Of a stretch of DNA of 64,000 nt, positions 7,463 to 62,602 are shown piece by piece. Source of the DNA: an uncultured bacterium (GTDB taxonomy: Bacteria > Chloroflexota > Dormibacteria > Aeolococcales > Aeolococcaceae); NCBI GenBank assembly GCA_963847225.1, contig CAWJYZ010000003.1:153512-217511 (forward strand), read 5' to 3'. Both the position numbers and the translations under genes were made by a program. The notes under the pieces are model-generated. The model saw nothing but the letters and a program-made list of their open reading frames with translations. It had not been told where the DNA came from and made no database searches. Every line of letters starts with the position of its first letter. The first letter of the stretch is position 1.

Positions 7463-7469
7463 CAGAGGA

Positions 7470-16993: not shown

Positions 16994-17072
16994 GTCCCCG
17001 TAGGGATCGACGTGATCCTCGGGGGTAGGCGCAGGGGGGCGCAGGCCCCCTGCTCGGTATCCTTGGCCGGCA

Positions 17073-26399: not shown

Positions 26400-26516
26400 C
26401 CCTGCCACCGAAGGTCGGCGGGCGGCAGTTCGTCAGCGCGATCCTGCGGCGCAGCGCATCCAGCCGACCTCGGCGCGCACGCGGGCCGGCGCACGCGGCA
26501 AAGTAGCTGCTAGCCC

Positions 26517-27425: not shown

Positions 27426-27434
27426 GGCAGGGCG

Positions 27435-27911
27435 ATGCCGGCAAGACGACGACCCGAGGACCCGGTCCTCGCGCGCCACCGCCAGGCGAGCCACGAATAT
27501 CACCTGCTCGAGACGTTCGAAGCCGGCGTGGAGCTGGCCGGGACGGAGGTCAAGGCGCTCCGAGCCGGGCTCGCCCAGCTTCGCGAGGGTTACATCCGCA
27601 TCGAGAACGGGGAGGCCTGGCTGGTCGGGGTTCACATCGGCCAATACGCGGCGGGTAACCGCCAGAACCACGATCCCATCCGCCGCCGCCGGCTCCTGCT
27701 CCACGGGCGCGAGATCCGCTACCTCGATCAGCGAGCCCGTCTTGGGGGCTTCACCCTGATTCCGATCCGCCTCTATCTCAAGAACAATCACATCAAGTGC
27801 GAGATCGCCGTGGCGCGCGGCAAGAAGCTGTGGGACAAGCGGGAGGCGATCGCCGCCCGCGACGCTCAGCGCGCCATCGAGAGAGCCACCAGTCGGGCAC
27901 TTCGCGGCTGA
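27435..27911 (+). CDS. smpB: SsrA-binding protein
   Basis: 158 aa with canonical SmpB features (EAGVELAGTEVKALR...GYIRIENGEAWLVGVHI) and the basic C-terminal tail. Confidence 0.9.
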   Translation: MPARRRPEDPVLARHRQASHEYHLLETFEAGVELAGTEVKALRAGLAQLREGYIRIENGEAWLVGVHIGQYAAGNRQNHDPIRRRRLLLHGREIRYLDQRARLGGFTLIPIRLYLKNNHIKCEIAVARGKKLWDKREAIAARDAQRAIERATSRALRG

Positions 27912-27926
27912 TCGAGCCACGAACCG

Positions 27927-29153
27927 TCAGCTGGCCGCCAGGTCCCTCGCAGCGTCGGGGAGCGTCCGCTCCTCAGTGGAGCGGTTGTCGCGGTTGGCCC
28001 GGGTCTCCGGCACCACCCGCGCCGCCAGCTCGTCGATGGCGGCGCGCAGCTCGCGCAATCCCGTGCCGCGGGTCGCCGAGATGCGCAGGGCGCGGCAGCC
28101 GGCGATCTCCTCGAGGCCATCGACGACCGTGTCGAGGTGGGCGGCGTCGCGGCGGTCGCACTTGTTGGCGACGAGGAGTGTCGGCTGATCGCACCCCATC
28201 TGCGCCAGGGTGGTCAGAACGGTCCTGAGCTGGCCGGCGCACTCCGGATGGGAGACGTCGACGATGAGGGCGAGGAGATGTGCGCCCCTCACCTCCTCCA
28301 GGGTGGCGTTGAAGGCTTCGACGAGCTCGGTGGGAAGCGCCTGGATGAAGCCGACGGTGTCGGTGAGGATCAATCGCCGCCCAGAGGCCAGGCTCAGCAG
28401 CCGCGAGGTCGGGTCGAGAGTGGCGAAGAGGAGGTCGTCGGCGAGGACCTCGGAGTTGGTCAGGCGGTTGAGGAGGGTTGACTTGCCGGCGTTGGTGTAG
28501 CCGACGAGGGCGCAGGACGCGAGGGGGACGTCGCTCCGCGCCTGGCGGCGCGTCCGGCGCTGGCGCTCGAGGACCTGCAGCCGCTGGCGAAGCCGGGCGA
28601 TGCGCTGCCGGATGAGCCGGCGGTCGACCTCGATCTGGGTCTCCCCGGGGCCTCCACGCAGGCCCACGCCGCCACGCTGCCGCTCCAGGTGGCTCCAGCC
28701 GCCGGCGAGACGGGGCAGGAGATGTTCCAATTGGGCCATCTCCACCTGAATCTTCCCCTCCGCGGTCACCGCCCGGCGGGCAAAGATGGCGAGGATGACC
28801 TCGGTCCGGTCCAGGACCGGGACACCCCAGCGCTCCTCGAGATTGCGCTGCTGGCGGGGACTGAGGGGATCGTTGACCAGCACCGCCGGGCTCCCCAGCT
28901 CGGCGAGGCGGGCTGCGAGGGCGTCCACCGCCCCGCCGCGGAAGAAGGTCGCGGGATGCGGCTCGCGGACGGCCACCGCGCTGTGCTCGACGACGGTCGT
29001 CCCCAGCGTGCGGGCCAGCTCCTCCAGCTCGTCAAGCTGCACGTCGACGCGCTCGCGCCCTTCGCGCCCCTGGTAGGAGCCGAAGACGGCGACGTCGCGA
29101 AGAAGCTGGCCGATCCCGGGGTCGGCCCCGGTTCGGGGCGAGGTGCGTGCCAT
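27927..29153 (-). CDS. hflX: GTPase HflX
   Basis: An HflX N-domain is followed by G-motifs GYTNAGKSTLLN, DTVGF and NKCD. The start is taken at the internal Met, because the ORF-track N-terminal extension to 29861 is antisense to the phosphatase gene and non-homologous. Confidence 0.85.
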   Translation of the reverse strand: MARTSPRTGADPGIGQLLRDVAVFGSYQGREGRERVDVQLDELEELARTLGTTVVEHSAVAVREPHPATFFRGGAVDALAARLAELGSPAVLVNDPLSPRQQRNLEERWGVPVLDRTEVILAIFARRAVTAEGKIQVEMAQLEHLLPRLAGGWSHLERQRGGVGLRGGPGETQIEVDRRLIRQRIARLRQRLQVLERQRRTRRQARSDVPLASCALVGYTNAGKSTLLNRLTNSEVLADDLLFATLDPTSRLLSLASGRRLILTDTVGFIQALPTELVEAFNATLEEVRGAHLLALIVDVSHPECAGQLRTVLTTLAQMGCDQPTLLVANKCDRRDAAHLDTVVDGLEEIAGCRALRISATRGTGLRELRAAIDELAARVVPETRANRDNRSTEERTLPDAARDLAAS

Positions 29154-29210
29154 CCACCGCCAGGGTACCGTGGGCGCGGACCCGGAAACGCCCCTGGTAC
29201 GGTTGGATGC

Positions 29211-30053
29211 ATGGCGATGCCGGAGGACCTCGTCCTGGTCCGTCACGGCGAGTCCGAGGGTAACCTCGCCGACCGGATGTCTCAGGAAGGCGACGACAGC
29301 GCCTTCACGCCCCAGTTCCGGGCCCGCCACTCCTCGAAGTACCGCCTCACCGAGCTGGGGCGCGAGCAGGCCCGCATCGCCGGCGAATGGCTCCGCGACC
29401 ACATCGGACCTCGCTTCGACCGCTACCTCACCTCCGAGTACGTGCGGGCCATGGAGACGGCCGCGCTCCTCGGTCTCCCCGGCGCCCTCTGGCAGGCCGA
29501 GTTCTACCTGCGCGAGCGCGACGCGGGAAGCCTCGACTCCCTGGCCACCGACGAGAAGTTCCGGCGCTTCCCAGAGGCCATGCAGGAGCGCGACCGCGAC
29601 GCCTTCTACTGGAGACCGCCGGGCGGCGAATCCCTCGCCGAAGTGTCGCTGCGCGTTGACCGGGTGCTCGACACCTTGCGCCGCGGCCCCACCGCGGAGC
29701 GAGCCATCATCGTCTGCCACGGTGAGGTGATGCGCGCCTTCCGGGTGCGCATCGAGCGCCTCCCCCAGCATCGCTACATCGAGCTGCACGCGCCGCTGGA
29801 CAGCCGCGACCAGTTCCACAACTGCCAGATCCTCCACTACACGCGTCGCGATCCCGCGCACCCCGAGCGGATCTCCGACTACCTCGCTTGGATGCGTTCG
29901 GTCTGTCCTTGGGATCCGAGCCTCTCCCGGAATGTCTGGACGCCGGTGACGCGGCCCCGCTACACCAACAGCGAGCTGCTTGACCTCGCCGAGCGGACGC
30001 CCCGGCTTCTCGCCGGCCCCCCGTTGGCGGAGGTGGAGTCGGCGATCCCCTGA
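29211..30053 (+). CDS. histidine phosphatase family (phosphoglycerate mutase-like) protein
   Basis: It starts MAMPEDLVLVRHGESEGN, carrying the RHG catalytic motif. Length is 281 aa. Confidence 0.7.
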   Translation: MAMPEDLVLVRHGESEGNLADRMSQEGDDSAFTPQFRARHSSKYRLTELGREQARIAGEWLRDHIGPRFDRYLTSEYVRAMETAALLGLPGALWQAEFYLRERDAGSLDSLATDEKFRRFPEAMQERDRDAFYWRPPGGESLAEVSLRVDRVLDTLRRGPTAERAIIVCHGEVMRAFRVRIERLPQHRYIELHAPLDSRDQFHNCQILHYTRRDPAHPERISDYLAWMRSVCPWDPSLSRNVWTPVTRPRYTNSELLDLAERTPRLLAGPPLAEVESAIP

Positions 30054-32369: not shown

Positions 32370-32746
32370 TGGTGGAGCCGAGGGGAATCGAACCCCTGTC
32401 CGAAACCGCGTTCCGCGTGACCTCTACGAGCGTAGTCCCGGTTTTGCTCTCACTCTCGGCGCGCCCTGGGACCAGGCTCGCCGGGAGCCAGCCGCGGTGA
32501 GCGTCCCGGCCGGCGCCGCGGCGCCACCGGCCGGCGAGACCGCTGGTATTTACGTCGGCTCAGGCCCCCGCGGTCGAGGGACCCGACGACGTCAGGCCGT
32601 GGCCTGAGCTTTTTCTCGTTCTACCGCTTACGCGGCGAGGGCGAGAGCAGGTGCGTCGTTCGCACGTATTGTTTTCCCGGTTTTACGAGCCCGGGGCTCG
32701 GCCCGCCATCACACGACCCACGATCCCGTCGAATCCATACGGCCCC
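32370..32746 (-). ncRNA. ssrA: transfer-messenger RNA (tmRNA, ssrA); encoded tag (A)NDAPALALAA
   Basis: The minus-strand 5' end GGGGCCGUAUGGAUUCGACGGG matches the tmRNA 5' consensus. The 3' end ...GGACAGGGGUUCGAUUCCCCUCGGCUCCACCA has a T-arm plus an acceptor stem pairing with GGGGCCG, and CCA is encoded. The internal ORF GCG AAC GAC GCA CCU GCU CUC GCC CUC GCC GCG UAA translates to a tag ending in ALAA. smpB lies 4.5 kb upstream. Confidence 0.85.
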
Positions 32747-33459: not shown

Positions 33460-34407
33460 TCAGCTCGCACCGGCGCTCCCGAGCGCGGCGAGACGGGCCT
33501 CGGTGATGCGGATCGCCTCCGGGTTGGTGTCGACGCTGAGGTGGCGCCGGCCCAGCGCCTTGGCCGCCACCGCCGCCGTTCCCGAACCGCCGAAGAAGTC
33601 GGCGACGAGATCGCCGGGGCGGCTGGAGGCGAGGACGATGCGCTGCAGAAGGCGGAGCGGCTTCTGCGTCGGGTAGCCGGTGCGCTCCCGGCCGCTGGTG
33701 GGCACGATGGTCATCCACCAGACGTCGGTGGGAAGCTTCCCCCGCGCCGCCTTCTCGGGGGTCACCAACCCGGGGGCGAGATAGGGGAGGCGGTCGACCG
33801 CCTCGCGATTGAAGATCCATCTCTCCCCTCTCGCGTACCAGAGGATGTTGTCGTGCTTGCGGGGCCAGCGGTCCCGCCCCCGGCCGCCGTAGTCGTAGGC
33901 CCAGATGATCTCGTTGAGGAAGCGCTCGGAGCCGAAGACCTCGTCGAGAAGGAGGCGGACGTGGTGCACGGCATGATGGTCGAGGTGCACATAGATCGAG
34001 CCATGCTCGGCCAGAACGCGGCGCATGGCGACGAACCGCGGGGCCAGGAAGGCGAGGTAGGCGTCGAGGTCCAGGTCGTCGCGGTACTCGTGAGTGGAGA
34101 CGGTCTCCCAGCGGTAGGTCCGCCCGCCGAAGCCCACCCGGGTGCGCTCCCCGGCACCGGTGCGGATGGAGGCGAGCCGCTGCCGCTGCCTCGTGCCGAA
34201 GGGCGGGTCGACGTAGATGAGGTCGACGCAGCCATCCGACAGCGCCTCCAGCACCTCGAGGTTGTCGGCGAGGAAGACGCCCTCGGGGGCCTGTCCCTCT
34301 TGCGGGGCTCCTCCACAGGGTGCGGGCTCCCCCACAACAACCCTGGGATCGTCACCGATCGACACAACCTCGGGATCATCGCCAATCGGCGTTGGTTGAC
34401 GGTTCAA
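33460..34407 (-). CDS. site-specific DNA methyltransferase (beta-class N6-adenine/N4-cytosine, DPPF motif), no adjacent restriction enzyme
   Basis: Motif IV VDLIYVDPPF is near the N-terminus, and motif I DFFGGSGTAAVAAKALGRRHLSVD is near the C-terminus, which is the beta-class order. The N-terminal roughly 40 aa contain a tandem peptide repeat (IGDDPEVVSIGDDPRVVVG). Confidence 0.8.
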   Translation of the reverse strand: MNRQPTPIGDDPEVVSIGDDPRVVVGEPAPCGGAPQEGQAPEGVFLADNLEVLEALSDGCVDLIYVDPPFGTRQRQRLASIRTGAGERTRVGFGGRTYRWETVSTHEYRDDLDLDAYLAFLAPRFVAMRRVLAEHGSIYVHLDHHAVHHVRLLLDEVFGSERFLNEIIWAYDYGGRGRDRWPRKHDNILWYARGERWIFNREAVDRLPYLAPGLVTPEKAARGKLPTDVWWMTIVPTSGRERTGYPTQKPLRLLQRIVLASSRPGDLVADFFGGSGTAAVAAKALGRRHLSVDTNPEAIRITEARLAALGSAGAS

Positions 34408-34457
34408 CTACATGGGTATACGCTTGGGGTCCAGATCCGCCCGCCCCGGAGAGCCCC

Positions 34458-35426
34458 ATGCCTGCTGTCACGACCCCCGACATCCTCACCCTGCCACGCG
34501 TCCCTGAACCGGACCACTCCACGCAGCGCCCCCGCCCCGTCCTCTCCGTCACCTCCGCCCCCAGCGGGCTGGAGGGGGAGGGCTTCCCGGTGCGGCGGGC
34601 CTTCGCCGGCGTTGACCTCACCGCCCTCGATCCCTTCGTGCACATGGACCAGATGGGAGAGGTCCAGTACGCGCCGGGCGAGCCGAAGGGCACGCCCTGG
34701 CACCCGCACCGTGGCTTCGAGACGGTGACGTACATGATCGACGGCACCTTCCGACACCGGGACTCGACGGGTGGGGGAGGGCTGATCACCAACGGCGCCA
34801 CCCAGTGGATGACGGCGGGAGCGGGCATCCTTCATATCGAGCAGCCCCCGGAGGAGCTGGTGGCGAGCGGAGGGCTCTTCCACGGCATCCAGCTGTGGGT
34901 CAACCTGCCCGCCGCCAAGAAGTGGGTGCCGGCGCGCTACCAGGACATTGGCGCCCAGCGGGTGACCCTCCTCGCCTCCCGCGATGGCGCGACGCTGGTC
35001 CGGGTCATCGCCGGCGAGGTCGCCGGATACGACGGCCCGGGCATCACCCACACCCCGATCGCCCTGGTGCACGCCACCCTGGCCCCGGGAGCCGTGCTCG
35101 AGCTGCCCTGGAACCCCGGCTTCAACGCCCTCGCCTACGTCCTCGCCGGAGCGGGCACGGTGGGGGCTGACGGGGTGGCCCCGGCCCGGATGGGACAGCT
35201 CGCGGTGTTCGGGTCCGGCGATTTCATCACGGTGGCCGCGGCGGAGCGCCAGGAGAGCCGTTCCCCGGAGCTCGACGTCCTGCTCCTCGGCGGCGAGCCG
35301 ATCAAGGAGCCGGTGGCGCACTATGGCCCCTTCGTCATGAACAGCCGCGACGAGCTCCTCCAAGCCTTCGAGGACTATCGTGCCGGGCGCTTGGGGACCA
35401 TACCGGCCGACGCCATCACGGTCTGA
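34458..35426 (+). CDS. pirin-family (bicupin) protein
   Basis: The ATG at 34458 has a GGAGAG ribosome-binding site. The cupin metal-binding motif HPHRGFETVTYMIDG is present. Length is 322 aa. Confidence 0.85.
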   Translation: MPAVTTPDILTLPRVPEPDHSTQRPRPVLSVTSAPSGLEGEGFPVRRAFAGVDLTALDPFVHMDQMGEVQYAPGEPKGTPWHPHRGFETVTYMIDGTFRHRDSTGGGGLITNGATQWMTAGAGILHIEQPPEELVASGGLFHGIQLWVNLPAAKKWVPARYQDIGAQRVTLLASRDGATLVRVIAGEVAGYDGPGITHTPIALVHATLAPGAVLELPWNPGFNALAYVLAGAGTVGADGVAPARMGQLAVFGSGDFITVAAAERQESRSPELDVLLLGGEPIKEPVAHYGPFVMNSRDELLQAFEDYRAGRLGTIPADAITV

Positions 35427-35859
35427 GCCGAGGGCGGCTGGCGGCCTCCAGGAAGCGGGAGACCGCTCCGCCCACCTCCCGCTCCGCCCTCTCGAGGTCC
35501 TTGAGGGCGGTGGCTCGCTGCGCCGCCTTCCAGCCGTCCCAGGCGATGGGGATGAGCTCGAGCTGGGCGAGCACCGTCTGCATCGCCGCGCGCACGTCGT
35601 GGCGGGCGTTGCCGAGCTCGTCCGGAGCACCACCCGGCGGCCGGAGCGAGGCCGGATGCGTCTCAAATCGGCGCAGCGACGCCAAAGCGCGCGCACCGGT
35701 CGTGGAGAGACGGTCCGCGTCCTCCCGGGGGCCGGGGGCGGGTCCGTCGACCGCCGCCCGGGCGCTGACCACCGCCCGCTCCAGCTCGACCGTATCCGAC
35801 ACGGGCCGATTGTGCCAGTCCTTCACGCCCGAACCGGGGCGGCGCGGGTGGTGGGACAC
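35416..35859 (-). CDS. hypothetical protein
   Basis: 147-aa ORF with strong GC3 bias and a predicted helical fold. It is convergent with the pirin gene. Confidence 0.45.
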   Translation of the reverse strand: MSHHPRRPGSGVKDWHNRPVSDTVELERAVVSARAAVDGPAPGPREDADRLSTTGARALASLRRFETHPASLRPPGGAPDELGNARHDVRAAMQTVLAQLELIPIAWDGWKAAQRATALKDLERAEREVGGAVSRFLEAASRPRLRP

Positions 35860-36524: not shown

Positions 36525-36971
36525 TCAGGCTCCGGGCTCGGCGGCGCCCCCGCCCCCGATCCTCAGCGCTGTCAGCGACTCTCTGATCGTCTCCGCGGCC
36601 CGGTCCATCTCCCGCGGGTCCGGGTTGTGGTTCTGCTGCGCGAAGTCGAGATGGTGCAGGGAGTGGATGGGGACGAGGTGGACGTGCACGTGGGGCACCT
36701 CGAGGCCAGCGAGCATCAGCCCCACCTTGACTGGTCGGAAGCCGTGCTGCAGGGCCCGGCCCAGATCCTGGGAGACGCTCATCAGGTGGGTCAGAAGGGC
36801 GGCGTCGAGGTCCAGCCAGTGGTCCACCTCGCGGCGCGGCACCACCAGGGTGTGGCCCGGCCGGAGCGGACGGTTGGAGAGGAAGGCGACACAGAGGGCG
36901 TCCTTCCAGACGAAGCGAGCGGACAGCTCGCCGGCGATGATGCGGCTGAACACGCTCGGCACGCCTGCCAT
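36525..36971 (-). CDS. HIT-family (histidine triad) hydrolase
   Basis: 148 aa. The HIT motif HVHVHLVP is present, with an N-terminal IIAGELSARFVWKDALCVAF segment. Confidence 0.8.
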   Translation of the reverse strand: MAGVPSVFSRIIAGELSARFVWKDALCVAFLSNRPLRPGHTLVVPRREVDHWLDLDAALLTHLMSVSQDLGRALQHGFRPVKVGLMLAGLEVPHVHVHLVPIHSLHHLDFAQQNHNPDPREMDRAAETIRESLTALRIGGGGAAEPGA

Positions 36972-37014
36972 TGTGCCCGGTGCCGGCCGGTGAGCCGGGG
37001 CCGGGAAGGCGAAG

Positions 37015-37140
37015 GTCAGGCGTCCGAGGTCTGCTGCCGCGCTTTCTTGACCTCCTCGCGGCGCTGCGCCTTGTGGGTCGACGGCGCGCGCGGCTTCTTG
37101 GGCTGGCGCTTGGGTGCGCCACGGGTCTTCTCGCCTGCCA
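37015..37140 (-). CDS. small basic protein (41 aa, MAGEKTRGAPKRQPKKPRAPSTHKAQRREEVKKARQQTSDA)
   Basis: Unlisted short ORF between the HIT and GalT-like genes. It shows GC3 bias and is Lys/Arg-rich. No ribosome-binding site is evident. Confidence 0.3.
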
Positions 37141-37169
37141 TGGGCGAAGTCTAGCTTTAGGCTTCGGAC

Positions 37170-38174
37170 ATGGAGCTGAAGCGTGAGATCCATCACTCCG
37201 AGATCCTCGACCCCCGGCTCGACTTCGCGGCGTCGCGCACCCCCGTGGAGACCCGCTGGGATCCTCTTCTCGGCTACCCTGCGCGCCTCGTGCGGAGCCT
37301 CAGCCCGCTTCTGCCCCGATCCACCTTCGACCTCAAGGCGCTGGCGGCGAGCACCCGCGAGACCTGCCCCTTCTGCCCGGAGCGGGTCATGTCGGCGACG
37401 CCCCGGCTCGTCCCCGCCATCCACCCCGAGGGACGGATCCACCGCGGGGAAGCTCTTCTCTTTCCCAACCTCCTCACCTACGCCAAGCACAGCTCCGTCT
37501 CCGTCTACTCGCCGGAGCGGCACAGCCTTCCCCTCGAGGAGATGACCGGGCGCCTCATGGCTGACAACCTCGCCACCCAGGTCACGTTCGTCCGTGCGGT
37601 CGCGGCCCATGACGCCTCGGCGCTCTGGGCCTCCGTCAATGCCAACCATCTGCCGCCCTCGGGGAGCTCGCTCTTCCACCCTCATCTGCAGGGGAGCGTC
37701 GACCCGACGCCGTCCACCCTGCAGGTGATGCTCGCCAGCGTCCCCAGGGAGCGGATCGAGATGTACGTTGCCACGGAGCGGCGCCTCGGCGAGCGCTTCA
37801 TCGCCGACACCGGAAGAGTGCGGTGGCTGGCGAGCTTCGCTCCCATCGGCTTCCACGAGGTCCGCGCCGTCGTTCCCGGCCATCTCTCGCCGGCGCAGTT
37901 CGATGAGGCTCTGGTGGAGGAGCTCGGCGCCGGCATTGCGGCGGTCTTGAACCTGTATGCGGAGATGGGGCAGCAGAGCTTCAACATGGCGCTGCTGGGC
38001 GCGCCTCCGGATGGGCGTGACACCATGCTCACGCTCCGGATGGTGTGCCGCGCCAACCCTGGCACCGTCTACCGCTCCGACGTCACGTACTCGGAGCGCC
38101 TGCACTGGCAGGCCGCGGTCGACACGTCGCCGGAGGAGCTCGCCGAGCGCGCTCGGGCGCGATTCTCTCGTTGA
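37170..38174 (+). CDS. GalT-like nucleotidyltransferase (HIT superfamily branch III; galactose-1-phosphate uridylyltransferase / ApnA phosphorylase-like)
   Basis: 334 aa with the zinc-site CPFCP and the active-site HPHLQGS (HxHxQ) motif. Confidence 0.7.
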   Translation: MELKREIHHSEILDPRLDFAASRTPVETRWDPLLGYPARLVRSLSPLLPRSTFDLKALAASTRETCPFCPERVMSATPRLVPAIHPEGRIHRGEALLFPNLLTYAKHSSVSVYSPERHSLPLEEMTGRLMADNLATQVTFVRAVAAHDASALWASVNANHLPPSGSSLFHPHLQGSVDPTPSTLQVMLASVPRERIEMYVATERRLGERFIADTGRVRWLASFAPIGFHEVRAVVPGHLSPAQFDEALVEELGAGIAAVLNLYAEMGQQSFNMALLGAPPDGRDTMLTLRMVCRANPGTVYRSDVTYSERLHWQAAVDTSPEELAERARARFSR

Positions 38175-54691: not shown

Positions 54692-55273
54692 TCATAGGAC
54701 GGCGAGCGGCAGGATGAGATTGGTGAAGATGACGTCCACGGCGATGAACAGCACGATGTAGGTCGCGAGGGCCACGAGCGCGGCGACATCGAAGGTGCGA
54801 CTGTAGGTGGTGATGCCTTCGAACGGCTGGCAGAAGGGCTGAGACAGCTCGCGAATGGCGCGGCTCATCGGGTGCCACCGGTCGACCTGGAAGAGGGCCA
54901 GAAGGAGGCGCACGAGGACGAGGACGACGATGATGGCGAGGATGATGAGGAGAAGCTGCTGCAGGACATAGACGACGGTGTAGGGGACCGAAGCTCCCTC
55001 GCCGATGGAGGTCGAGAGCGCGCTGAAGAGTGCCGCGCCGGTGAGGGTGGCGATGATGGCCAACACCGGCGCGAGATCGAGCCTTCCTCCGGCGATGGGC
55101 AGCAGACCGCGAAATGGCGAGACCACCGGGGTGGCGATGCCGCGGATCACGCGCACAAAAGGGTTGAGGGGATCGAGGCCGGGGATCCACGACAGGATGG
55201 CGTCAGCGATCAGGACGAGGACCAGAAGATCCAGCAGCCGGGCGATGAGAAGGAGGAGATTGCTGACGAGCAC
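54692..55273 (-). CDS. yggT: YggT-family membrane protein (two YggT repeats)
   Basis: 193 aa. The YggT motif (LIADAILSWIP...NPFVRVIRGIATPVVSPFR) is repeated twice (...VDRWHPMSRAIRELSQPFCQPFE). Confidence 0.75.
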   Translation of the reverse strand: MLVSNLLLLIARLLDLLVLVLIADAILSWIPGLDPLNPFVRVIRGIATPVVSPFRGLLPIAGGRLDLAPVLAIIATLTGAALFSALSTSIGEGASVPYTVVYVLQQLLLIILAIIVVLVLVRLLLALFQVDRWHPMSRAIRELSQPFCQPFEGITTYSRTFDVAALVALATYIVLFIAVDVIFTNLILPLAVL

Positions 55274-55352
55274 GTTCCGAGTATAGGCAGGGACTCTCCA
55301 GGCCTAGCCCGCCATCATCCCGCGCGCCGGGCGCGCCGCTGCAGTGCGGGTG

Positions 55353-55724
55353 TCAGTTCCAATCGGTCGGATACACGAGGTGGGGGAGGGGAAGCGACGC
55401 CTCCCGAGCGGCGTCGTCTCGCTCCGCCTGTGCGACGTCACGGAAGTTGCGGCTCGGCCGAGAATTCTGGGTCGGCTCCACGAAGCCGAGAACGGTGGGC
55501 GGCTCGCCCGTCGGGTCCAGGGTGGACCAATCGACCTCGATGACACGCCAGTCTTGCTCATCGACCCGGATCGTCTCCCCGTCGCTCAGATCATCGGCGT
55601 CGATGCAGGCGGCGCCGAAATCGGAGTCGCCGGCATCCAGCTTGGTCACATCGGCGAGGAGGAAGCGGAACACGCCCCCAGGGTAGCGGGATGTCACGGC
55701 CGGCGCCAGCCCGGAGATGGCCAC
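55353..55724 (-). CDS. hypothetical protein (acidic)
   Basis: 123-aa ORF with GC3 bias, between lgt and yggT on the same strand. Confidence 0.4.
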   Translation of the reverse strand: MAISGLAPAVTSRYPGGVFRFLLADVTKLDAGDSDFGAACIDADDLSDGETIRVDEQDWRVIEVDWSTLDPTGEPPTVLGFVEPTQNSRPSRNFRDVAQAERDDAAREASLPLPHLVYPTDWN

Positions 55725-55774: not shown

Positions 55775-56755
55775 TCAGGAGGCGGGCTCGCCGCCTCCGC
55801 CGTCCACGCCGCCGCCCTCCGGGTCACGGCGGGCCGCCGCGGCGGTTACCTCCAGGGCCGCGGCCGTCACCCCCTCCGCGTCGGCGGGGACCCCGGCGGG
55901 CGCACCCTCCGAGGCCGGGCTGGGCGCCGGGCGCAGGGCCGCGCTCCGCCTCCACAGGAGGATGAGTGTCGGCATCCCGATCACGAAGGCGACGATGGCG
56001 GTGAGCTGCAGCTCCTTCATGCCCAGCCACACGATGGGCTCCGATTCGCGGACGAAGTCGAGCCCGAACTGGCTGATCGCATAGAGAGCGAAATAGGTGA
56101 TGAAGAGCACACCGGGGCGCACGCCGCGGCGGCGCAGAAGCAGGAGAGCGATGAGGATCACGATGGTCGCCAATCCCTCGTAGGCGCCTGCGGGCTGATA
56201 GGCGGTGCAGCTTCCGGGGACGCACAGGCTGTAGTGCACCTGCGCGGTGCTCTGCAGCACGGCGTTGGGATTGGTATACGCGGTGGCCCAGGGCAGGTTG
56301 CTCGGACCGCCCAAGATGTCGCCGTTGATCACGTTGCCGATGCGGCCGATGGGCTGGCCCACGACGGCGAAGAGCGCCCCGGCGTCGACGACGCTCCAGA
56401 GCGGAAGGTGCCAGCGCCAACCGAGGAACAGGATGGTCAGGGTGGCGGCGACGAGGGCGCCGTAGAACGCCATCCCCCCGTTCCAGACGGCGATCCAGTC
56501 GAGCGGCGTTCTCATCGCGGAGAGGGTTTGGACGTCGTAGTAGAGGCGGGCGCCGATGAGGCCGAAGAGGATGGCCCAGCCGGCGAGGCGCTCGACCTGG
56601 TCGAGGCTGGCGCCCCGCTTCAGCATGTGCGGGCGCGCCCCGAACTGGTAGGCGACGATGAAGGCGACGACATAGAGGATCCCGTACCAGTGCACGGAGA
56701 GGGATCCGAGGTTGAAGGCGACCGGGGAGATCCCGATCTTGATGATGGCCAGCAT
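55775..56755 (-). CDS. lgt: prolipoprotein diacylglyceryl transferase
   Basis: Lgt signature GQPIGRIGNVINGDILG, with H-103 and Y-235-like contexts, and multiple TM segments. It has a Pro/Ala-rich C-terminal tail of about 60 aa. Confidence 0.9.
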   Translation of the reverse strand: MLAIIKIGISPVAFNLGSLSVHWYGILYVVAFIVAYQFGARPHMLKRGASLDQVERLAGWAILFGLIGARLYYDVQTLSAMRTPLDWIAVWNGGMAFYGALVAATLTILFLGWRWHLPLWSVVDAGALFAVVGQPIGRIGNVINGDILGGPSNLPWATAYTNPNAVLQSTAQVHYSLCVPGSCTAYQPAGAYEGLATIVILIALLLLRRRGVRPGVLFITYFALYAISQFGLDFVRESEPIVWLGMKELQLTAIVAFVIGMPTLILLWRRSAALRPAPSPASEGAPAGVPADAEGVTAAALEVTAAAARRDPEGGGVDGGGGEPAS

Positions 56756-56757: not shown

Positions 56758-57288
56758 CTACTGATGATGCCCCGCTGGGCTGGTCGCGCGCACCTCAAGG
56801 AGGCGGTAGCCGCGCTTCGAGGTCAGCCTCGTGCTCGAATAGCCCAGATCCCGCAGGCGTTCGGCGAGGGAGTCGGCGCCCAGATGCCGCTGCACGACGA
56901 GGTACCCTGCCCCCCCGGGCTCGAGGCGACCGAGCCAGCCCGTGAGGAGGGGAAGGAGGGCCGGCCGGCCCACCCGTATGGGCGGGTTGCTGTAGAGGGC
57001 GGCGAAGCGGAGCCTCGGGTCCACCTCCTCGGGGCGGCAGGCCTCCACGTTCGGAGTGGCGTTCTGCATGGCGTTGAAACGCGTCAACTCCAGCGCCCTC
57101 TCGTTGACGTCGACGGCGACCACCCGAGCGCCGGGGCTGCGCCGGGCCAGGGCCACGGCGATCACCCCGTGGCCGCAGCCGAGGTCGAGGAGGATGCCGG
57201 TGGGTGGAGGTAGCGGCGCCTCGCGGAGGAGGATCTCCGTGCCGGGATCGAGGCCCCGGGTGGCGAACACGCCACGATCGGTGCGCAA
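56758..57288 (-). CDS. class I SAM-dependent methyltransferase, 'methyltransferase small domain' (RsmC/YbxB-like)
   Basis: RTDRGVFATRGLDPGT...LDLGCGHGVIAVALA...YSNPPIRVG matches the small-MTase family. It begins at a TTG, and the frame stays open upstream with homolog-like sequence (QHYFSAAPIAPSAPETVRVHLLDQTVV) but no canonical start. Confidence 0.7.
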   Translation of the reverse strand: MRTDRGVFATRGLDPGTEILLREAPLPPPTGILLDLGCGHGVIAVALARRSPGARVVAVDVNERALELTRFNAMQNATPNVEACRPEEVDPRLRFAALYSNPPIRVGRPALLPLLTGWLGRLEPGGAGYLVVQRHLGADSLAERLRDLGYSSTRLTSKRGYRLLEVRATSPAGHHQ

Positions 57289-57395
57289 GACGACGGTCTG
57301 GTCGAGGAGGTGGACCCGGACGGTCTCCGGCGCCGAAGGGGCGATCGGCGCGGCGGAGAAGTAATGCTGGGGAGGCCGGGGATGGGGCAGCCCGG

Positions 57396-59258
57396 CTACC
57401 GCCGCGGCGAGGGAAGGGCGAAGCTGCGCGCCACCGCGGCGACGGCGTCGAGGTAGGAGCGCCGGGTGGCCGGCCGGAGGAGGTCGACGTCGACCTCCAT
57501 GCCCTCGGCGAGGTGGGCGTCCCAGGGAACCTTGACCACGGCCCGGCAGCGCTTGGCGAAATGCTGGACCACGGAGCGAAGCTCCTTGCCGCGGTCCTTG
57601 CGCACCTGGTTGATGACCACCACGGCGTCGCTCACCAGGTCGTGGTAGCCGTGCTCATCGAGCCAGTCGAGGGTGAGGCTGGAGGCGCGCGAGGCGTCGA
57701 TCCCGGGCGCGGCGCAGAGCACGATCTGGTCGGCCATGCGGAGGATCCCCTGCGTCGCGGAGTCCAGGATGCCGGTCCCCGTGTCCATGAGGATGAGGTT
57801 GTAGTGGTGCTCGAGAACGTGCAGCACCTCGCGGTACTCGGCCTCCCCCAGGGCCACGCTGATGGTCGGGTCGTCGTCGGAAGCGAGCACCTCGAGCCGG
57901 GTCGGTGACTGGCTCGTGAAGCTCCGCATGTCGCTGTAGCGCTGGATGCGGTCGACGGCGCGGAGAAGCTGGGTGACGGTGGCGTCGGTCTGACGGTTCA
58001 CCCGGTAGGCCAGCGAACCGGCATCGGGGTTGGCATCGAGGGCCACCACCCGATCGCCGCGATGGGTGGCGAAGGTGTGGCCGAGCATGAGGGTCGTGGT
58101 GGTCTTGCCGATGCCTCCCTTGCGGGACACGATGGCGATGCGGCGGCAGGTGGCGATCGGCGTCTTGGCGACGGTGATGAGCTCGCGCTCGCGGCGCTCG
58201 TCCAGCCCCGGGCCGGGGGTGATCCCCCCGAAGGTGAGGAGGCGGATGGTGCGCCGCCATCCCCGGGTGGCGGGAGCCACCCGCGCGGGGCGCACCCGGT
58301 CGGGGGCGAAATCGTGCGCCGTGCCGGGTGGCGCCGGAGCCGGGCGCACGAGAGCCGGCTCGGGGTCGGGAGCGAAGGAGGAGAGGCGGCCGCTCCTCGC
58401 CGGGGCGGCCCGCTGCGGTGTGGCCAGGGCGGGTCCGGGGAGTGGTCGCCAGGCCGCGGGCGTCGGAGCCGGGCGGCTCGACGCCGGGGCCGGGCGCCCC
58501 CCGTTGGAGGCGGGGCTCGCCGGCTGCGCGGCAGGGGCGGCGCCGCTGCGCGCCAACGGGATGCCCGGGGGTATGCCGTTGCGACCGGGCGACGGAGGGG
58601 CGGCGGGTGCGCTGCCCAGTGCCGGCTGGACACCCGGGCCTGCGCTGCCGCGAGCCTCAGGCTGCGCCGCCAGAGATGGAACCGGACGAGCCCCCGGTGG
58701 GGTGGCGGAGGGAGCGCTGACCGGAGGCGCAGGCCGTGCTCCGGGAGGCACTCCGGGCTGCGCGGTCGGCCGGGGGATCTCTGGGGGTCTCTGGCGGGCG
58801 GCCGCGGGTGGCGCGCCCTCGACGGGGGGCCAACTCGGGGAGGCGGGGGCCCTGGCTGGCGGAGCAGTGCTCGGCACGGCGGGACGATCCAGTCGGGGGG
58901 GCGCCGGGCCCGCCGCGCCGGGCTGGGCGCGGAGGTACCAGGGCGGGGTGCCGTTGGGGGAGCTCGAGCTCCGAGCGGGCGGTGCCGAGGGGGTTGCCGG
59001 GCGGGGGGCCGGTTTGACGGCTCCAGACCGACCGTCGGCGCGCGGTGCGGCGGCGCTCCCAGCCGGCTCCGCTGCAGCCCCCGGCTGGACCGGCTCGGCG
59101 ACGCCGTCCGCGTCGACCTTGGCGGCGCCACCGGCTCCCTCTGGGCCGTCGCCGCGACGGGGGTGGCCGACGATCTCCACGGGATCGGGCGACGCGGCAG
59201 GGGGCGATGGCACCGAGGTCGTCGGCTTCGTCTCCCCGGCGTTCTTCTCTGTCACCAC
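57396..59258 (-). CDS. ParA/MinD-family P-loop ATPase with roughly 330-aa Pro/Ala-rich N-terminal region
   Basis: The C-terminal roughly 290 aa carry deviant Walker A IAIVSRKGGIGKTTTT, Walker B LILMDTG, and a ParA/MinD fold. The N-terminal part is low-complexity P/A/S-rich. The start is uncertain: a GTG at about 59255-59258 after an AGAGGAGAGG ribosome-binding site, or the ATG at 59333. Confidence 0.75.
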   Translation of the reverse strand: MVTEKNAGETKPTTSVPSPPAASPDPVEIVGHPRRGDGPEGAGGAAKVDADGVAEPVQPGAAAEPAGSAAAPRADGRSGAVKPAPRPATPSAPPARSSSSPNGTPPWYLRAQPGAAGPAPPRLDRPAVPSTAPPARAPASPSWPPVEGAPPAAARQRPPEIPRPTAQPGVPPGARPAPPVSAPSATPPGARPVPSLAAQPEARGSAGPGVQPALGSAPAAPPSPGRNGIPPGIPLARSGAAPAAQPASPASNGGRPAPASSRPAPTPAAWRPLPGPALATPQRAAPARSGRLSSFAPDPEPALVRPAPAPPGTAHDFAPDRVRPARVAPATRGWRRTIRLLTFGGITPGPGLDERRERELITVAKTPIATCRRIAIVSRKGGIGKTTTTLMLGHTFATHRGDRVVALDANPDAGSLAYRVNRQTDATVTQLLRAVDRIQRYSDMRSFTSQSPTRLEVLASDDDPTISVALGEAEYREVLHVLEHHYNLILMDTGTGILDSATQGILRMADQIVLCAAPGIDASRASSLTLDWLDEHGYHDLVSDAVVVINQVRKDRGKELRSVVQHFAKRCRAVVKVPWDAHLAEGMEVDVDLLRPATRRSYLDAVAAVARSFALPSPRR

Positions 59259-59395
59259 CTCTCCTCTGGGCAACCCCTGGCGAGTGTAGCGTGTCGAAAC
59301 TACGAAATGGCGCAGCCGATCCGGCCTCGGCAACGCAGCCTCGGATACCTTCTGGGCGCGACGGTACTCCGCTTCCGCGAGAATGTCGATCCCAC

Positions 59396-59911
59396 ATGGC
59401 GCGTGCCATCGTTCTTCTCGGCCTCATGGGAAGCGGCAAGACCACGGCGGGGAGGCTCCTCGCCAGGCGTCTCGGCCGCCCCTTCGTCGATGGCGACGCC
59501 CGTCTGCAGGTGGTGACCGGAAGGACGGCAGCCGAGATTGGCGAGGAGCGCGGCATCGAGGTCCTCCATCACCTCGAGGTCGAGGTGCTGGCGAGAAGCC
59601 TGAGCGCCCGCCCTGCGCCGGTCATCGCCGCTGCCGCGGCGGTGGTCCTCGACCCAAAGGTCTTGAGCCTCCTCGCCGACGCCTGGTCGGTGTGGCTGCG
59701 CGCCGACGTCAGTGAGCTCGCCGGGCGGCTGCAGGGCGTCCATGACCACCGTCCACTTCCCGGGGGCGACCTCCTGGGGATGCTTCGCGAGATGGCCCGC
59801 ATTCGCGACCCCCTCTACGCCAGCGTCGCCGACCTGACCGTGGACGCCCGGCACACCACCCCGGCGGCGATCGTGCGCCGGATCCTCGAGGCCATGCCCG
59901 CCGGCGTCTGA
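59396..59911 (+). CDS. aroK: shikimate kinase
   Basis: 171 aa. The start MARAIVLLGLMGSGKTTAGRLLARRLGRPFVDGD (P-loop) is the shikimate kinase N-terminal pattern. Confidence 0.85.
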   Translation: MARAIVLLGLMGSGKTTAGRLLARRLGRPFVDGDARLQVVTGRTAAEIGEERGIEVLHHLEVEVLARSLSARPAPVIAAAAAVVLDPKVLSLLADAWSVWLRADVSELAGRLQGVHDHRPLPGGDLLGMLREMARIRDPLYASVADLTVDARHTTPAAIVRRILEAMPAGV

Positions 59912-60092: not shown

Positions 60093-61334
60093 ATGACGGG
60101 CACGGCCACCCTGGCACTGATGAGCGTCGCCGAGGCGAGAGCACGGCTCCTCGAGCTCGTCGGCGCGCGTGTGACCGAGGAGGAGCAGGTCCCCCTGGGC
60201 GAGGCCGGAGGGAGGGTTCTCGCCCGCGCGGTGACGGCCGCCTGGCCGATCCCGGGCTGCGACAACTCGGCGATGGATGGCTACGCGGTGCGCGCGGCCG
60301 ACTGCGGCGGGGCCAGCCAGGCGGAGCCGCTGCGCCTTGCCGTGAGCGGCGAGGCACGCACCGGAGCCCCGCTCCGCCGCCTCCCCGCGGGGACGGCGAT
60401 GGCCATCGCCACGGGCGGCCCCATCCCCGACGGCGCCGACTCCGTGATTCCTGTGGAGGAGACACGTGAGGACGGTCCGGACAGGGTGCTCATCCTGGCC
60501 GTCCCGCGGGCGGGCGACCACGTCCGCCGCGCTGGAGGGGATGCGCCGGCGGGGACGGCTCTCGTGCCGCCGGGCCGGCGGCTGCGCCCGGTGGATCTCG
60601 CCGCCTGCGCCGCGGCGGGGGCGGCATCTGTCTGGGTACGCCGCCGGCCGCGGGTGGCCCTTCTCTCCGGCGGCGACGAGCTGGTGCCGCTGGGAGCGAC
60701 CCCCGCCCCGCATCAGGTCACGGACAGCAATTCGGTGATGCTGGCCGCGTCGGTGCGAGCAGCCGGCGGGGAGGTCGTCCCCCTGGGCATCGCCGGTGAT
60801 TCACCCGATGAGGTGCGCCGCCGGCTGGCCGGAACCGCGGGCTGCGACCTCGTCCTCACCAGCGCCGGGGTGAGCGTGGGCCGGCACGACCACGTCCGCG
60901 AGGTCGTCAGCGAGCTGGGCCGGGTCGAGGCCTGGAGGATCGCGATGCGCCCCGGCAAGCCGCTCCTCATCGGCACCCTGGGGGAGATCCCCCTGCTCGG
61001 CCTCCCCGGAAACCCGGCCAGCAGTGCGGTGACCTTCGAGCTCTTCGGGAGGACGGCCATCCTCGCCCTGCAGGGATGCTCGCGGCCGGATCGGCTGCGG
61101 GTCGCGGTGCGTGCCGGGGAGACGATGGATGCGCCGGCTCACCTCGAGACGTACCTCCGCGTGCACCTCGCCGACGGCGAGGACGGCGTTCCGGTGGCGA
61201 CGCTGAGTGGGGCGCAGACGTCGTCGATGCTGCATTCGCTCGCCGGCGCGGATGCGCTGCTCATCGTTCCCGCCGGGATGGGTCGGGTTGAGCGGGGGCG
61301 GCTGCTGGCCGCCATGGTGCTCGACGGATGGTGA
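60093..61334 (+). CDS. moeA: molybdopterin molybdotransferase
   Basis: MoeA domains are present, with GCDNSAMDGYAV, the MogA-like SGGVSVG motif, and a C-terminal MoeA domain. The start is either the ATG at 60093 or at 60120. Confidence 0.85.
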   Translation: MTGTATLALMSVAEARARLLELVGARVTEEEQVPLGEAGGRVLARAVTAAWPIPGCDNSAMDGYAVRAADCGGASQAEPLRLAVSGEARTGAPLRRLPAGTAMAIATGGPIPDGADSVIPVEETREDGPDRVLILAVPRAGDHVRRAGGDAPAGTALVPPGRRLRPVDLAACAAAGAASVWVRRRPRVALLSGGDELVPLGATPAPHQVTDSNSVMLAASVRAAGGEVVPLGIAGDSPDEVRRRLAGTAGCDLVLTSAGVSVGRHDHVREVVSELGRVEAWRIAMRPGKPLLIGTLGEIPLLGLPGNPASSAVTFELFGRTAILALQGCSRPDRLRVAVRAGETMDAPAHLETYLRVHLADGEDGVPVATLSGAQTSSMLHSLAGADALLIVPAGMGRVERGRLLAAMVLDGW

Positions 61335-62602
61335 CCAGCCCGGGGGTGCGGGTGCGCTGCTTCGGTGCCCTGCGCGACCGCCTCGGCGCGGAGCGGCTGG
61401 TGCAGGAGCCGGTGCGCACCGTCCTGGAGCTGTGGACGGTGATTACCCGTGATGCGCCCCAGATTCGCGACGCGCGCCAGCATGTTCGCGTGGCCCGCAA
61501 CCTCGCCTACTGCGATTGGGAGACCGCGCTCGAGAGCGGCGACGAGGTGGCCTTCATGCCGCCCGTCGCCGGTGGGGCGGTGGAAGCGCGCCCCGGTCCC
61601 CTGATCCGCACCGCTCTCGTCGACGAGCCGATCGACGCCGCCCGGCTCACCGCCGAGCTCCGCTCCGACGTCGACGGGGCGATCGCCAGCTTCCTCGGCG
61701 TCGTCCGCGGGTCGACGGATGGGACGGCGGTGTCGCGCCTCGACTATGAGGCCTACCCGGAGATGGCGGGCCGGGAGCTCCGCCGCATCGCCGAGGCGGT
61801 CGCCGCCCGACACGCCCTGAGCGGGCTGGCGCTCGTCCACCGCGTGGGATCGCTGGAGGTCGGGGCGGTGAGTGTCGCGGCCGTGGCTGCCGCTCCCCAT
61901 CGGGGCGCCGCCCTGGACGCCTGCCGGGAAGGGATCGAGATGGTGAAGCGCGACCTGCCGATGTGGAAGCGCGAGCACCGCTCCGACGGCGCGGTGTGGG
62001 TTGACGCTCGCGAGCTCGACCCCGCGTCCACGAAGAGCGGTCCCGGGCCGAGCCATGCCGGCTCGGAAACCGCCGACGGCGGCGCACGGCTCACCCATGT
62101 CGACGGAACCACTGGCGTGCACATGGTCGACGTCAGCGATCGTGCTCCCAGCCTGCGCGAGGCGACCGCCGAGGCGGCGGTGCGCTTCAGCTCCTCCGCC
62201 ACCCTGCAGGCGCTTCGGGAGGGCTCTGCGAAGGGCGACGTTCTGGCTACCGCCCGTTTGGCGGGGATCATGGGAGCCAAGCGGACCCCGGAGCTCATCC
62301 CCCTCTGCCATCCGCTGCCGATCACGCACGTCGACGTGCGCTGCGAACCCGACCCAGCGCTGCCGGGGGTGCGCATCACCGCGTCGGCGCGCTGCGTCGC
62401 CGCGACCGGTGTGGAGATGGAGGCGCTGACGGCGGCGGCCGTCGCCTCGCTCACCGTGATCGACATGCTGAAGGCCGTCGATGCCTGGATCGCCGTGGAA
62501 TCCGTGCAGCTCCTGGCCAAGAGCGGCGGACGCAGCGGGACCCGCCGCCGGCCGGTCACACCGGCACCTCCACCACCGGATCCGGCGCCCGCGGAGGCCT
62601 GA
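61328..62602 (+). CDS. moaDEC: single-ORF fusion MoaD (ThiS-fold, ...FMPPVAGG) - MoaE (molybdopterin synthase large subunit) - MoaC (cyclic pyranopterin monophosphate synthase)
   Basis: The first roughly 83 aa end in the GG typical of MoaD. Residues about 90-230 carry MoaE motifs (GAIASFLGVVRG, EAYPEMAGRELRRIAE, VHRVGSLEVG, MWKREHRSDG). Residues about 265-424 carry MoaC motifs (LTHVDGTTGVHMVDVS, ELIPLCHPLPITHVDV, TGVEMEAL). All three parts lie in one frame with no stops. Confidence 0.8.
   Translation: MVTSPGVRVRCFGALRDRLGAERLVQEPVRTVLELWTVITRDAPQIRDARQHVRVARNLAYCDWETALESGDEVAFMPPVAGGAVEARPGPLIRTALVDEPIDAARLTAELRSDVDGAIASFLGVVRGSTDGTAVSRLDYEAYPEMAGRELRRIAEAVAARHALSGLALVHRVGSLEVGAVSVAAVAAAPHRGAALDACREGIEMVKRDLPMWKREHRSDGAVWVDARELDPASTKSGPGPSHAGSETADGGARLTHVDGTTGVHMVDVSDRAPSLREATAEAAVRFSSSATLQALREGSAKGDVLATARLAGIMGAKRTPELIPLCHPLPITHVDVRCEPDPALPGVRITASARCVAATGVEMEALTAAAVASLTVIDMLKAVDAWIAVESVQLLAKSGGRSGTRRRPVTPAPPPPDPAPAEA

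Follow-up and report, generated by a model that had tools for sequence, protein, structure and literature searches.

A ParA/MinD-Like ATPase of Probable EspI Type Encoded beside lgt in Dormibacteria

Introduction

What might a ParA/MinD-like ATPase with a long proline-rich N-terminus be doing at the head of a chromosomal gene cluster that includes lgt, the gene for prolipoprotein diacylglyceryl transferase? The question is raised by a stretch of 64,000 nucleotides from an uncultured bacterium of the Dormibacteria, a soil lineage (GenBank assembly GCA_963847225.1, contig CAWJYZ010000003.1), hereafter the window, which has a G+C content of about 71%. A minus-strand open reading frame (ORF) at 57396..59333, 645 amino acids (aa) long when counted from its first start codon, TTG, was confirmed as a real gene. 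The original prediction, made from the sequence alone, had likened its product to the septum-site-determining (Ssd-like) proteins of actinobacteria and had placed it in a possible envelope or division-positioning module.

The closest relatives described here point to proteins that go with secretion or membrane machines rather than to septation. The identity of the protein as an EspI-type ATPase, together with the architecture that goes with it, can be held with high confidence, and the protein is an ordinary member of that large, nearly unstudied family. What is new is the phylum, the core-chromosomal operon context outside secretion loci and a clade-specific N-terminal peptide. The best explanation overall, to which we would give a probability of about 0.45, is a cytoplasmic EspI-type P-loop ATPase that acts as a tethered nucleotide switch.

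The Relatives of the ATPase and the EspI Type

The closest proteins (77–85% identity) come from metagenome-assembled genomes of Candidatus Dormibacteria, and the next closest (52–61%) from Actinomycetota. The related loci, numbered with the prefix L, comprise 59 from one genome scan and more added by contig look-ups. Among them is L067, an ESX locus on a Mycolicibacterium plasmid, where the gene between mycP and eccD encodes a protein that has a 295-aa Pro-rich N-terminal region and shows 48% identity to the window domain (E 8e-84). Relatives that are 76–79% identical to the L067 protein are named ‘secretion protein EspI’ by NCBI, and one of these (P0132) matches the window domain at 47% identity (E 1e-85), so that the likeness to annotated EspI or espI-position proteins amounts to 47–48% over ~284 residues. 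As in EspI (Rv3876), the mycobacterial protein associated with ESX-1 secretion, a long, Pro-rich, disordered N-terminal region without a transmembrane (TM) segment precedes a homologous C-terminal P-loop ATPase domain, in which both the lead-in GWRR and the lysine of Walker A are present.

According to two reports, the Walker A lysine in the P-loop domain of EspI is essential and ATP is bound at Lys425, and in M. tuberculosis the protein holds ESX-1 secretion back when ATP runs low (PMC11302016, PMC12213627). One of them also describes a large Pro-rich intrinsically disordered region (IDR) that conserves composition and not sequence (PMC11302016), a property that the window protein shares. The window gene differs in that it lies outside any ESX/type VII locus and in another phylum, as a core gene co-oriented with a methyltransferase gene and lgt, and in that its IDR is strongly basic, not acidic, and begins with a conserved peptide of its own. 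To our knowledge, EspI is the only characterised member of the family, and its mechanism is unclear.

The family itself was surveyed with a HMMER pass over 1.84 billion representatives, which returned 908 clusters (at 50% identity) with E ≤ 1e-30. The best representatives, 148 of which were analysed, carry the domain at the C-terminus, after an N-terminal region with a median length of 336 aa and a maximum of 1254. This region is at least 100 aa long and free of TM-like segments in 110 of the 148, with a median of 19% Pro, while 14 have TM-like segments and eight of those 14 an HExxH motif. A Pro-rich N-terminal region followed by a C-terminal ATPase is the norm of the EspI-type family.

Homologs were found on 384 actinobacterial plasmids, and relatives also head clusters that resemble type IV secretion systems (T4SS), with DUF6112/TrbC-like, DUF8175, VirB4-like, CHAP or NlpC/P60, and VirD4 genes. 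The Actinomycetota paralogs, annotated as ‘MinD/ParA family protein’, share with the window protein the TAxDF...GWRR...PGP lead-in and the long linker at the 52–61% identity given above, but they are fused to an HExxH domain or to TcpE, or head T4SS-like clusters, whereas the window protein lacks TM segments and neighbours of that kind.

Two kinds of fusion deserve a description of their own. In Nonomuraea (L054 5592-13707; also L055–L061 and L063), a protein of 1109 aa joins a TcpE (VirB3-like) domain, a G/D/A/R-rich linker of ~700 aa and an EspI-type domain whose Walker A motif is degenerate (GCTGGAGQSTT). After its gene come VirB4-like AAA_10 and TrbL/VirB6 genes, and the protein could be a pseudo-ATPase with a tether to a T4SS. 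In ~27 Actinomycetota loci (Table 1), a polytopic HExxH membrane domain, a Pro-rich linker and an EspI-type ATPase are fused in a conserved cassette, in the order BTAD regulator, two peptides of 60–80 aa (..ELLPxRExL.. and then an N/A/V-rich segment), fusion protein and a secreted Cys-containing protein of 200–265 aa. Pfam recognises only the BTAD and ATPase parts of this cassette, which looks like an undescribed peptide-processing or export system. The name ‘putative peptide zinc metalloprotease protein’ that the Joint Genome Institute (JGI) gives to many homologs probably stems from the HExxH fusions.

The ATPase Domain

The Pfam families CbiA (PF01656) and AAA_31 (PF13614) match the C-terminal ~250 residues of the window protein, and the deviant Walker A motif, the switch I Asp and the Walker B Asp that mark the ParA/MinD (SIMIBI) superfamily are all present along with the fold. 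The K, G, D and T residues of the KGGxGKT, DxNPD and DTGTG motifs are invariant in both alignments of the domain. In the AlphaFold2 model of the domain (pLDDT, the predicted local distance difference test, 80.7; predicted template modelling score, pTM, 0.80), a beta-hairpin and a helix (FG..PGP..ERRERE, residues 337-364) lead into the classical fold, which extends to residue 613 and is followed by a six-residue basic tail (614-619). Foldseek searches of the PDB matched 3ea0, 4rz2, 3r9j and 2bek with E values from 7e-11 to 1e-9, at template modelling scores of 0.65–0.78 (normalised by target) and 17–22% identity; a Chlorobium ParA-family ATPase, FlhG, MinD, FleN, Soj and McdA fit about equally and are not separated by this measure. 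Sequence matches in the PDB are confined to the Walker A/P-loop region (best E 2e-4), so that no close relative has a solved structure. The deviant-Walker-A ATPase that had been read from the letters was thus borne out by Pfam, AlphaFold2, Foldseek and the invariant motifs alike.

Subfamily models gave a different picture. All of the curated NCBIfam models tried, which included tyrosine autokinase and KGGVGR, scored far below their cut-offs: 44.3 bits against 180 for partition ParA (NF041546), 37.4 against 212.9 for MinD (TIGR01968), 31.9 against 201.75 for archaeal MinD (TIGR01969), 26.9 against 348 for RepA (TIGR03453) and 20 against 158 for BcsQ. No CpaE/TadZ/Ssd-type model was among the Pfam or NCBIfam matches at E ≤ 0.01. 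The likeness to MinD, FlhG (FleN), Soj-ParA and McdA lies in the fold and in the deviant Walker A with its signature lysine, from which ATP-dependent dimerisation is to be expected. It stops there, as the identity is only 17–22%, the curated equivalog models fail, no MinC/E or ParB partner was found nearby, and an extra conserved N-terminal beta-hairpin and helix (GWRR...ERRERE) stand before beta-1. Nor was a MinD-like C-terminal amphipathic tail, which would target the membrane, seen in the window protein, which ends ..ARSFALPSPRR right after the last helix of the fold.

With Ssd (Rv3660c) and the CpaE-TadZ proteins, the window protein has in common that it is an orphan ParA/MinD-like ATPase resembling actinobacterial ones, and TadZ-type proteins also serve a secretion machine. 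It differs from them in the lack of a model match, in its neighbours, which are aroK, the methyltransferase gene and lgt and not tad/cpa genes, and in its N-terminus, which is disordered and has no receiver-like domain. The Ssd-like resemblance of the original prediction was not supported. Judged by its sequence, the ATPase belongs to a distinct subfamily of the ParA/MinD fold that is not MinD, Ssd or partition ParA.

The Start Codon and the Proline-Rich Region

The start of the gene was settled by comparison. The sequence GGAGAG(G/A)NG-TTG-ACC-GAG is kept in 15 Dormibacteria orthologs, and its TTG falls opposite the window's second GTG (59255), so that the protein is 619 aa long. GGAGAG stands at the Shine-Dalgarno position in most of these orthologs (L007 has GGTGAC). 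This GTG, with AGAGGAGAGG ahead of it, had already been suspected as the true start, while the ATG proposed as its competitor at 59333 proved to be a TTG and is not the start.

Further upstream, in the 140-nt divergent intergenic region common to the ATPase gene and aroK, a TACACT box is present in the window, L007 and L019, and TAGATT is found at a similar position in L011–L014, L043 and L050. TACACT is a putative promoter element, by inference, since a scan for consensus sigma-70 promoters found nothing. That scan, which covered promoters and terminators at 54.4-59.6 kb, gave no sigma-70 consensus promoter and no intrinsic terminator within the cluster, a null result made uninformative by the G+C range.

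Pro makes up 25%, Ala 22%, Gly 10% and Ser 8% of the ~330 residues before the domain, which are basic (pI 11.5, net charge +13) and without a TM-like segment. An open frame is weak evidence of coding in DNA of 75% G+C, where other frames are open too, and the G+C content of third codon positions (GC3), 0.93 in the domain, drops to 0.66-0.88 here. As a coding test GC3 was thus equivocal, and the comparison of frames and indels among orthologs was therefore used. The N-terminal peptide and the ATPase domain share one frame in 16/16 loci, and the distance from the start to WRPLP takes 15 different values, from 612 to 1434 nt, every one of them a multiple of three. In the six cleanest ortholog pairs (79–89% nucleotide identity), 18/18 indels are multiples of three, and two further, equally close pairs, both with L050, have gaps that are not multiples of three but that offset one another; more distant pairs aligned too poorly for indel counting. 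These patterns are not explained by chance. With the conserved start, the shared frame, the in-frame indels and the conserved islands in agreement, the Pro-rich region is translated.

The L050 gaps (~6950–8000 in that locus, against L012 and L043) come as pairs of 1+29 and 38+61, whose members are not multiples of three singly while their sums are. The local linker peptide of L050 is unrelated to that of its relatives and could reflect a compensated frameshift or an assembly error.

The long low-complexity N-terminus is also predicted to be disordered, with residues 1-336 of the full-length AlphaFold2 model at pLDDT <50 and without secondary structure. A variable linker lies between the N-terminal peptide and two conserved pre-domain islands (Table 1). 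Most orthologs have a further, second island in the linker (GIPAAPPANG..RFxPPAPPAR) that is weak in the window protein, and TAxDF and GWRR are common to the Dormibacteria orthologs and the Actinomycetota relatives. The VEIVGH of the N-terminal peptide (59163-59180, minus strand) occurs nowhere else in the window, and a search of all six frames of the window with VEIVGH, WRPLP and TAxDF gave no copy that would mark a partner, the other matches being weak and without a hint of function. Trp-containing Pro-rich motifs recur in the N-terminal regions of relatives (ARPWAP, RPAWTGG, PPGWQ). A genome-wide artefact as the origin of the Pro-rich stretch was considered and rejected: most of the other ORFs of the window have no comparable Pro/Ala/Gly/Ser-rich stretches (the longest others measure 143–177 residues).

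The Gene Cluster in Dormibacteria

The gene order around the ATPase is conserved: all 23 Dormibacteria-type loci, which span 64–85% domain identity, have the ATPase gene followed directly by the methyltransferase gene and lgt. The shikimate kinase gene aroK diverges upstream in 18/23, dnaE converges downstream in 22/23, and yggT stands before dnaE in 20/23, which gives the order aroK<>ATPase-MTase-lgt...yggT<dnaE. In a neighbour-joining tree, the Dormibacteria clade is monophyletic and nested among actinobacterial branches. The ATPase domain is ~80% identical across the clade, and this, together with the frame-preserving linker indels, indicates purifying selection. From the synteny in 23 loci, the monophyletic clade and the housekeeping surroundings, the gene is shown to be a vertically inherited core chromosomal gene of Dormibacteria. 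The conserved co-directional cluster that the ATPase had been said to head was therefore upheld for the methyltransferase gene and lgt. A family member of 403 aa in Candidatus Nephthysia bennettiae, of the Dormibacterota lineage (L021 7704-8915; 61% identity), stands in a different context, without adjoining aroK, methyltransferase gene or lgt, and its N-terminal region is Ser-rich and not Pro-rich; the protein might represent a paralog, or else an ortholog that has been displaced.

The other members of the cluster fared unevenly against their first descriptions. The methyltransferase, thought to be RsmC-like, passes only for the generic MTS domain and fails the RsmC equivalog (NF007023) with 47 bits against a cut-off of 295. 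Its coding sequence (..PQHYFSAAPIAPSAPETVRVHLLDQTVV..) extends upstream of the first canonical start, TTG 57288 (57288-57390, minus strand), and no in-frame ATG, GTG or TTG is found from there back to the stop at 57657. CTG 57390, 5 nt after the ATPase stop, aligns with the ATG of 13 orthologs and is a CTG in L001 and L007 as well, and this position and conservation suggest a possible CTG start or coupled re-initiation. The lgt assignment held (TIGR00544 is above its cut-off), as did the description of its tail, which is P/A/G-rich past residue 265, and the 123-aa acidic protein was confirmed. The latter has no family match in the Pfam/NCBIfam searches, and its gene is restricted to the window's sub-clade, with tblastn matches only in L001, L007 and L016. 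The stops and starts, said to overlap, abut only at the methyltransferase stop and the lgt start (56758/56755), where lgt begins 2 nt after the stop codon; the other gaps, measured from canonical starts, are 50–107 nt.

The YGGT-family gene is indeed present downstream (PF02325), but its link to the operon is loose and its spacing variable: in orthologs it lies 0.1–1.3 kb beyond lgt, with an opposite-strand gene between them in one locus. A TATACT box stands 6 nt before the GTG start of yggT (55274-55300, minus strand), a spacing typical of leaderless transcripts, so that yggT probably has its own promoter.

Table 1. Positions of the ATPase gene, its parts and neighbouring or related features (window coordinates unless another locus is named).
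Feature	Position	Strand	Details
EspI-type ParA/MinD-like ATPase, coding sequence	57396..59255	-	619 aa from conserved GTG; stop TAG 57396-57398
Conserved N-terminal peptide, aa 1-38	59142..59255	-	M-TEKxGEEG...PV(D/E)IVGHxxR; 16-ortholog alignment
Variable Pro/Ala/Gly/Ser-rich linker, aa 39-268	58452..59141	-	composition, predicted disorder
Conserved pre-domain islands, aa 269-335	58251..58451	-	nearly invariant among orthologs
Island, aa 269-300			WRPLPxPALAxPQRxAP..GRLxxxxPDPE
Island, aa 304-335			RPAPxPPxTAxDFAPxRV...PATRGWRR
ParA/MinD-fold ATPase domain, aa 330-619	57399..58268	-	Pfam, AlphaFold2, Foldseek
Deviant Walker A, aa 377-388	58092-58127	-	SRKGGIGKTTTT
Switch I	58014-58043	-	ALDANPDAGS
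Walker B	57771-57800	-	NLILMDTGTG
Shine-Dalgarno-like sequence	59258..59267	-	AGAGGAGAGG; GGAG 5 nt before GTG 59255
-10-like box (candidate)	59283..59288	-	TACACT, ~28 nt upstream of start
MTS-domain S-adenosylmethionine (SAM) methyltransferase	56758..57390	-	Pfam MTS PF05175, 92 bits; adjoins the ATPase gene in 23/23 loci
lgt, prolipoprotein diacylglyceryl transferase	55775..56755	-	PF01790, 168 bits; TIGR00544, 126 bits vs cut-off 119
123-aa acidic protein	55353..55724	-	pI 4.1
YGGT-family membrane protein	54692..55273	-	PF02325; loosely linked
aroK (shikimate kinase), divergent	59396..59911	+	PF01202, 100 bits
ORFs with unmatched stretches or lengths	27927-29861, 36525-38105, 26433-27920, 34404-35696	-	
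HExxH-fusion cassette loci	L022 4608-9580; L023-L029, L031, L032, L034-L042, L047, L051-L053, L062		

What the ATPase Might Do

In the deviant-Walker-A superfamily, ATP drives the formation of a sandwich dimer through the signature lysine (structures such as 3q9l and 2bek), and by analogy the window ATPase would dimerise on ATP and so serve as a nucleotide-state switch. Across the family, the plan would be an anchor, a long flexible linker and the ATPase. The anchor in some relatives would be a membrane protein fused in cis, either TcpE/VirB3-like or a polytopic HExxH putative protease, and in others the gene lies inside type VII secretion system (T7SS) or T4SS-like loci. In Dormibacteria, the tether would be the conserved N-terminal peptide and/or the WRPLP island, through which a partner would be bound. 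Such binding could couple a membrane-associated machine, in its activity or its assembly, to the level of ATP, much as EspI is reported to do with ESX-1. This mechanism is a tentative one. Lgt, or lipoprotein maturation more generally, is the sole partner candidate offered by synteny, a weak argument, and Lgt is improbable as the actual target.

Several points weigh against the tethered switch. The tether idea rests on fusions in paralogous branches, and TM-like segments were seen in only 14 of the 148 representatives. No T7SS or T4SS gene is present in the window or within 8 kb on either side of the orthologs: the Ecc, MycP and WXG families are missing among the window genes in the Pfam search, and tblastn with the T4SS proteins of L002 and L003 and the ESX proteins of L067 (including EccC/D/B and MycP) found none beside the Dormibacteria orthologs. 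The comparison with EspI was made with annotated EspI or espI-position proteins of other mycobacteria and not with M. tuberculosis Rv3876, the neighbour-joining tree is a rough midpoint-rooted distance tree, and the gene order shared with lgt may be a relic of history with no functional meaning.

Three other functions for the ATPase were weighed against the tethered switch. The first, which has a small chance of being right, is that of a regulator associated with DNA or the nucleoid, which would bind nucleic acid through its very basic IDR and adjust the transcription of neighbouring genes. The pI and net charge of the IDR would suit it, and a possible precedent is offered by Rv3860, another ESX-1-linked protein with a ParA-like domain, which has been proposed as a transcriptional activator (PMC12502791). 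A literature search on MinD in Dormibacterota and on EspI as a ParA-like protein gave nothing else directly relevant. The Pfam/NCBIfam matches include no DNA-binding domain, however, and the charge of the IDR is not conserved, being net -18 in the EspI-like L067 protein and -3 in the T4SS-linked L002 protein.

A second possibility, that the ATPase is MinD/Ssd-like and positions the septum or the division site together with YggT, was closest to the original prediction and appears unlikely. The ParA/MinD fold speaks for it, YGGT genes are often found in ylm/division clusters, and a basic IDR could contact the membrane or the nucleoid. Against these stand the MinD scores (32–37 bits where more than 200 are needed), the want of a CpaE/Ssd-type match or of a C-terminal amphipathic membrane-targeting helix, and the position of the division region ftsQ...ftsA-ftsZ...ylmE-ileS-lspA at 3.4-20.5 kb, which is 35–50 kb from the ATPase and does not include the loosely linked yggT. 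No minC, minE or parB was found among the called window genes with a Pfam match, several ORFs having given no match. The nearest relatives are in secretion or conjugation loci, not division loci, and they point to EspI-type proteins associated with secretion or membrane machines. The septum-site role is thus not supported, and of the proposed envelope or division module only the envelope part survives, as a tentative idea that synteny with lgt suggests.

Equally doubtful is a DNA-partition ParA, or a leftover ParA-like gene of an integrated plasmid or integrative and conjugative element without a current role. The plasmid homologs and those that head T4SS-like conjugation clusters would agree with such an origin, as would an identity to Actinomycetota proteins (57–59% at best) that is high for a comparison across phyla. 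The ParA and RepA models fail by a wide margin (44 bits vs 180 and 27 vs 348), no ParB family and, in the window Pfam searches, no integrase gene was found near the ATPase gene, and no T4SS gene lies near it. The position between aroK and the methyltransferase-lgt pair, kept in 23 loci spanning 64–85% identity, and the signs of purifying selection argue against it further. Barely credible is the last alternative, an untranslated Pro-rich region and a real ATPase of ~300 aa, the size given in many automatic annotations. In its favour, many database entries are 296–336 aa long, GC3 falls in the region and other frames are open. Against it, the start codon and Shine-Dalgarno sequence are conserved 330–540 codons upstream, the N-terminal peptide stays in frame in 16/16 loci at 15 different lengths, indels in the closest pairs are multiples of three, conserved islands lie inside the region, and the intergenic distance to aroK leaves no space for another gene.

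The tethered switch thus stays the best explanation overall. In a variant of it that is not likely, an EspI-type ATPase freed from secretion loci would have been recruited as an ATP-sensing organiser of lipoprotein maturation or envelope biogenesis, docking onto Lgt, or some other membrane enzyme encoded in the operon, by way of its N-terminal peptide or its Trp/Pro islands.

Other Features of the Window

The rest of the window is occupied by housekeeping genes: murC-murB-ddl-ftsQ, ftsA-ftsZ-nrdR and ylmE-ileS-lspA-gmk-coaBC, as well as priA, def, hflX, tmRNA, dnaK, pcm, gatCAB, dnaE and molybdopterin genes. The division and cell wall (dcw) cluster is interrupted (3445-12512), with ~5.5 kb between ftsQ (3445-4437) and ftsA-ftsZ (9907-12512) that hold an F420H2-quinone-reductase-like gene, MTHFR, two PIN-domain genes, one of them preceded by a FitA-like ribbon-helix-helix (RHH) antitoxin, and a Zn-dependent dehydrogenase. 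Directly after the ylmE gene, which is of the pyridoxal phosphate (PLP)-binding YggS type, come ileS and lspA (16130-20507), with no sepF, yggT or divIVA between them, and the window's only YGGT gene is 35 kb from ylmE and adjoins lgt and dnaE. As lspA sits with ylmE-ileS and lgt is far away, these two genes of the lipoprotein pathway are in separate conserved contexts.

The tmRNA gene (32370-32746, minus strand; Rfam RF00023, 161.6 bits) encodes the tag peptide ANDAPALALAA. A single ORF at 61328-62602 (plus strand) joins ThiS/MoaD, MoaE and MoaC domains, with moeA, a MoCF_biosynth (MoaB/Mog-type) gene and an opposite-strand moaA on its flanks. In the HflX and HIT ORFs, the domains begin at residue 275 of 644 and 385 of 526 after long N-terminal stretches without a Pfam match, and Pfam matches are missing altogether from two more ORFs (495 and 430 aa); all of these (Table 1) may be over-extended calls in high-G+C DNA.

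Conclusions

The EspI family is large, with ~900 clusters at 50% identity and a presence on hundreds of plasmids, and its ATPase domain recurs behind a long disordered linker in free-standing proteins, in ESX and T4SS-like loci and in fusions to membrane proteins. This recurrence suggests one family-wide design principle, that of a tethered ATP switch. The case of Dormibacteria shows that in a second phylum the module can belong to the chromosomal core, away from any recognisable secretion locus. Annotations can be corrected as well: the short gene calls of ~300 aa should be 560–830 aa, and the metalloprotease name, probably taken from the fusion proteins, is misleading. If true, docking onto Lgt would make this the first ParA/MinD-like regulator of the lipoprotein pathway and would lay bare a general logic of anchor, disordered tether and ATPase throughout the EspI family. 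Besides the corrected annotation, the main value of the locus is as a lead into the design logic of that family.

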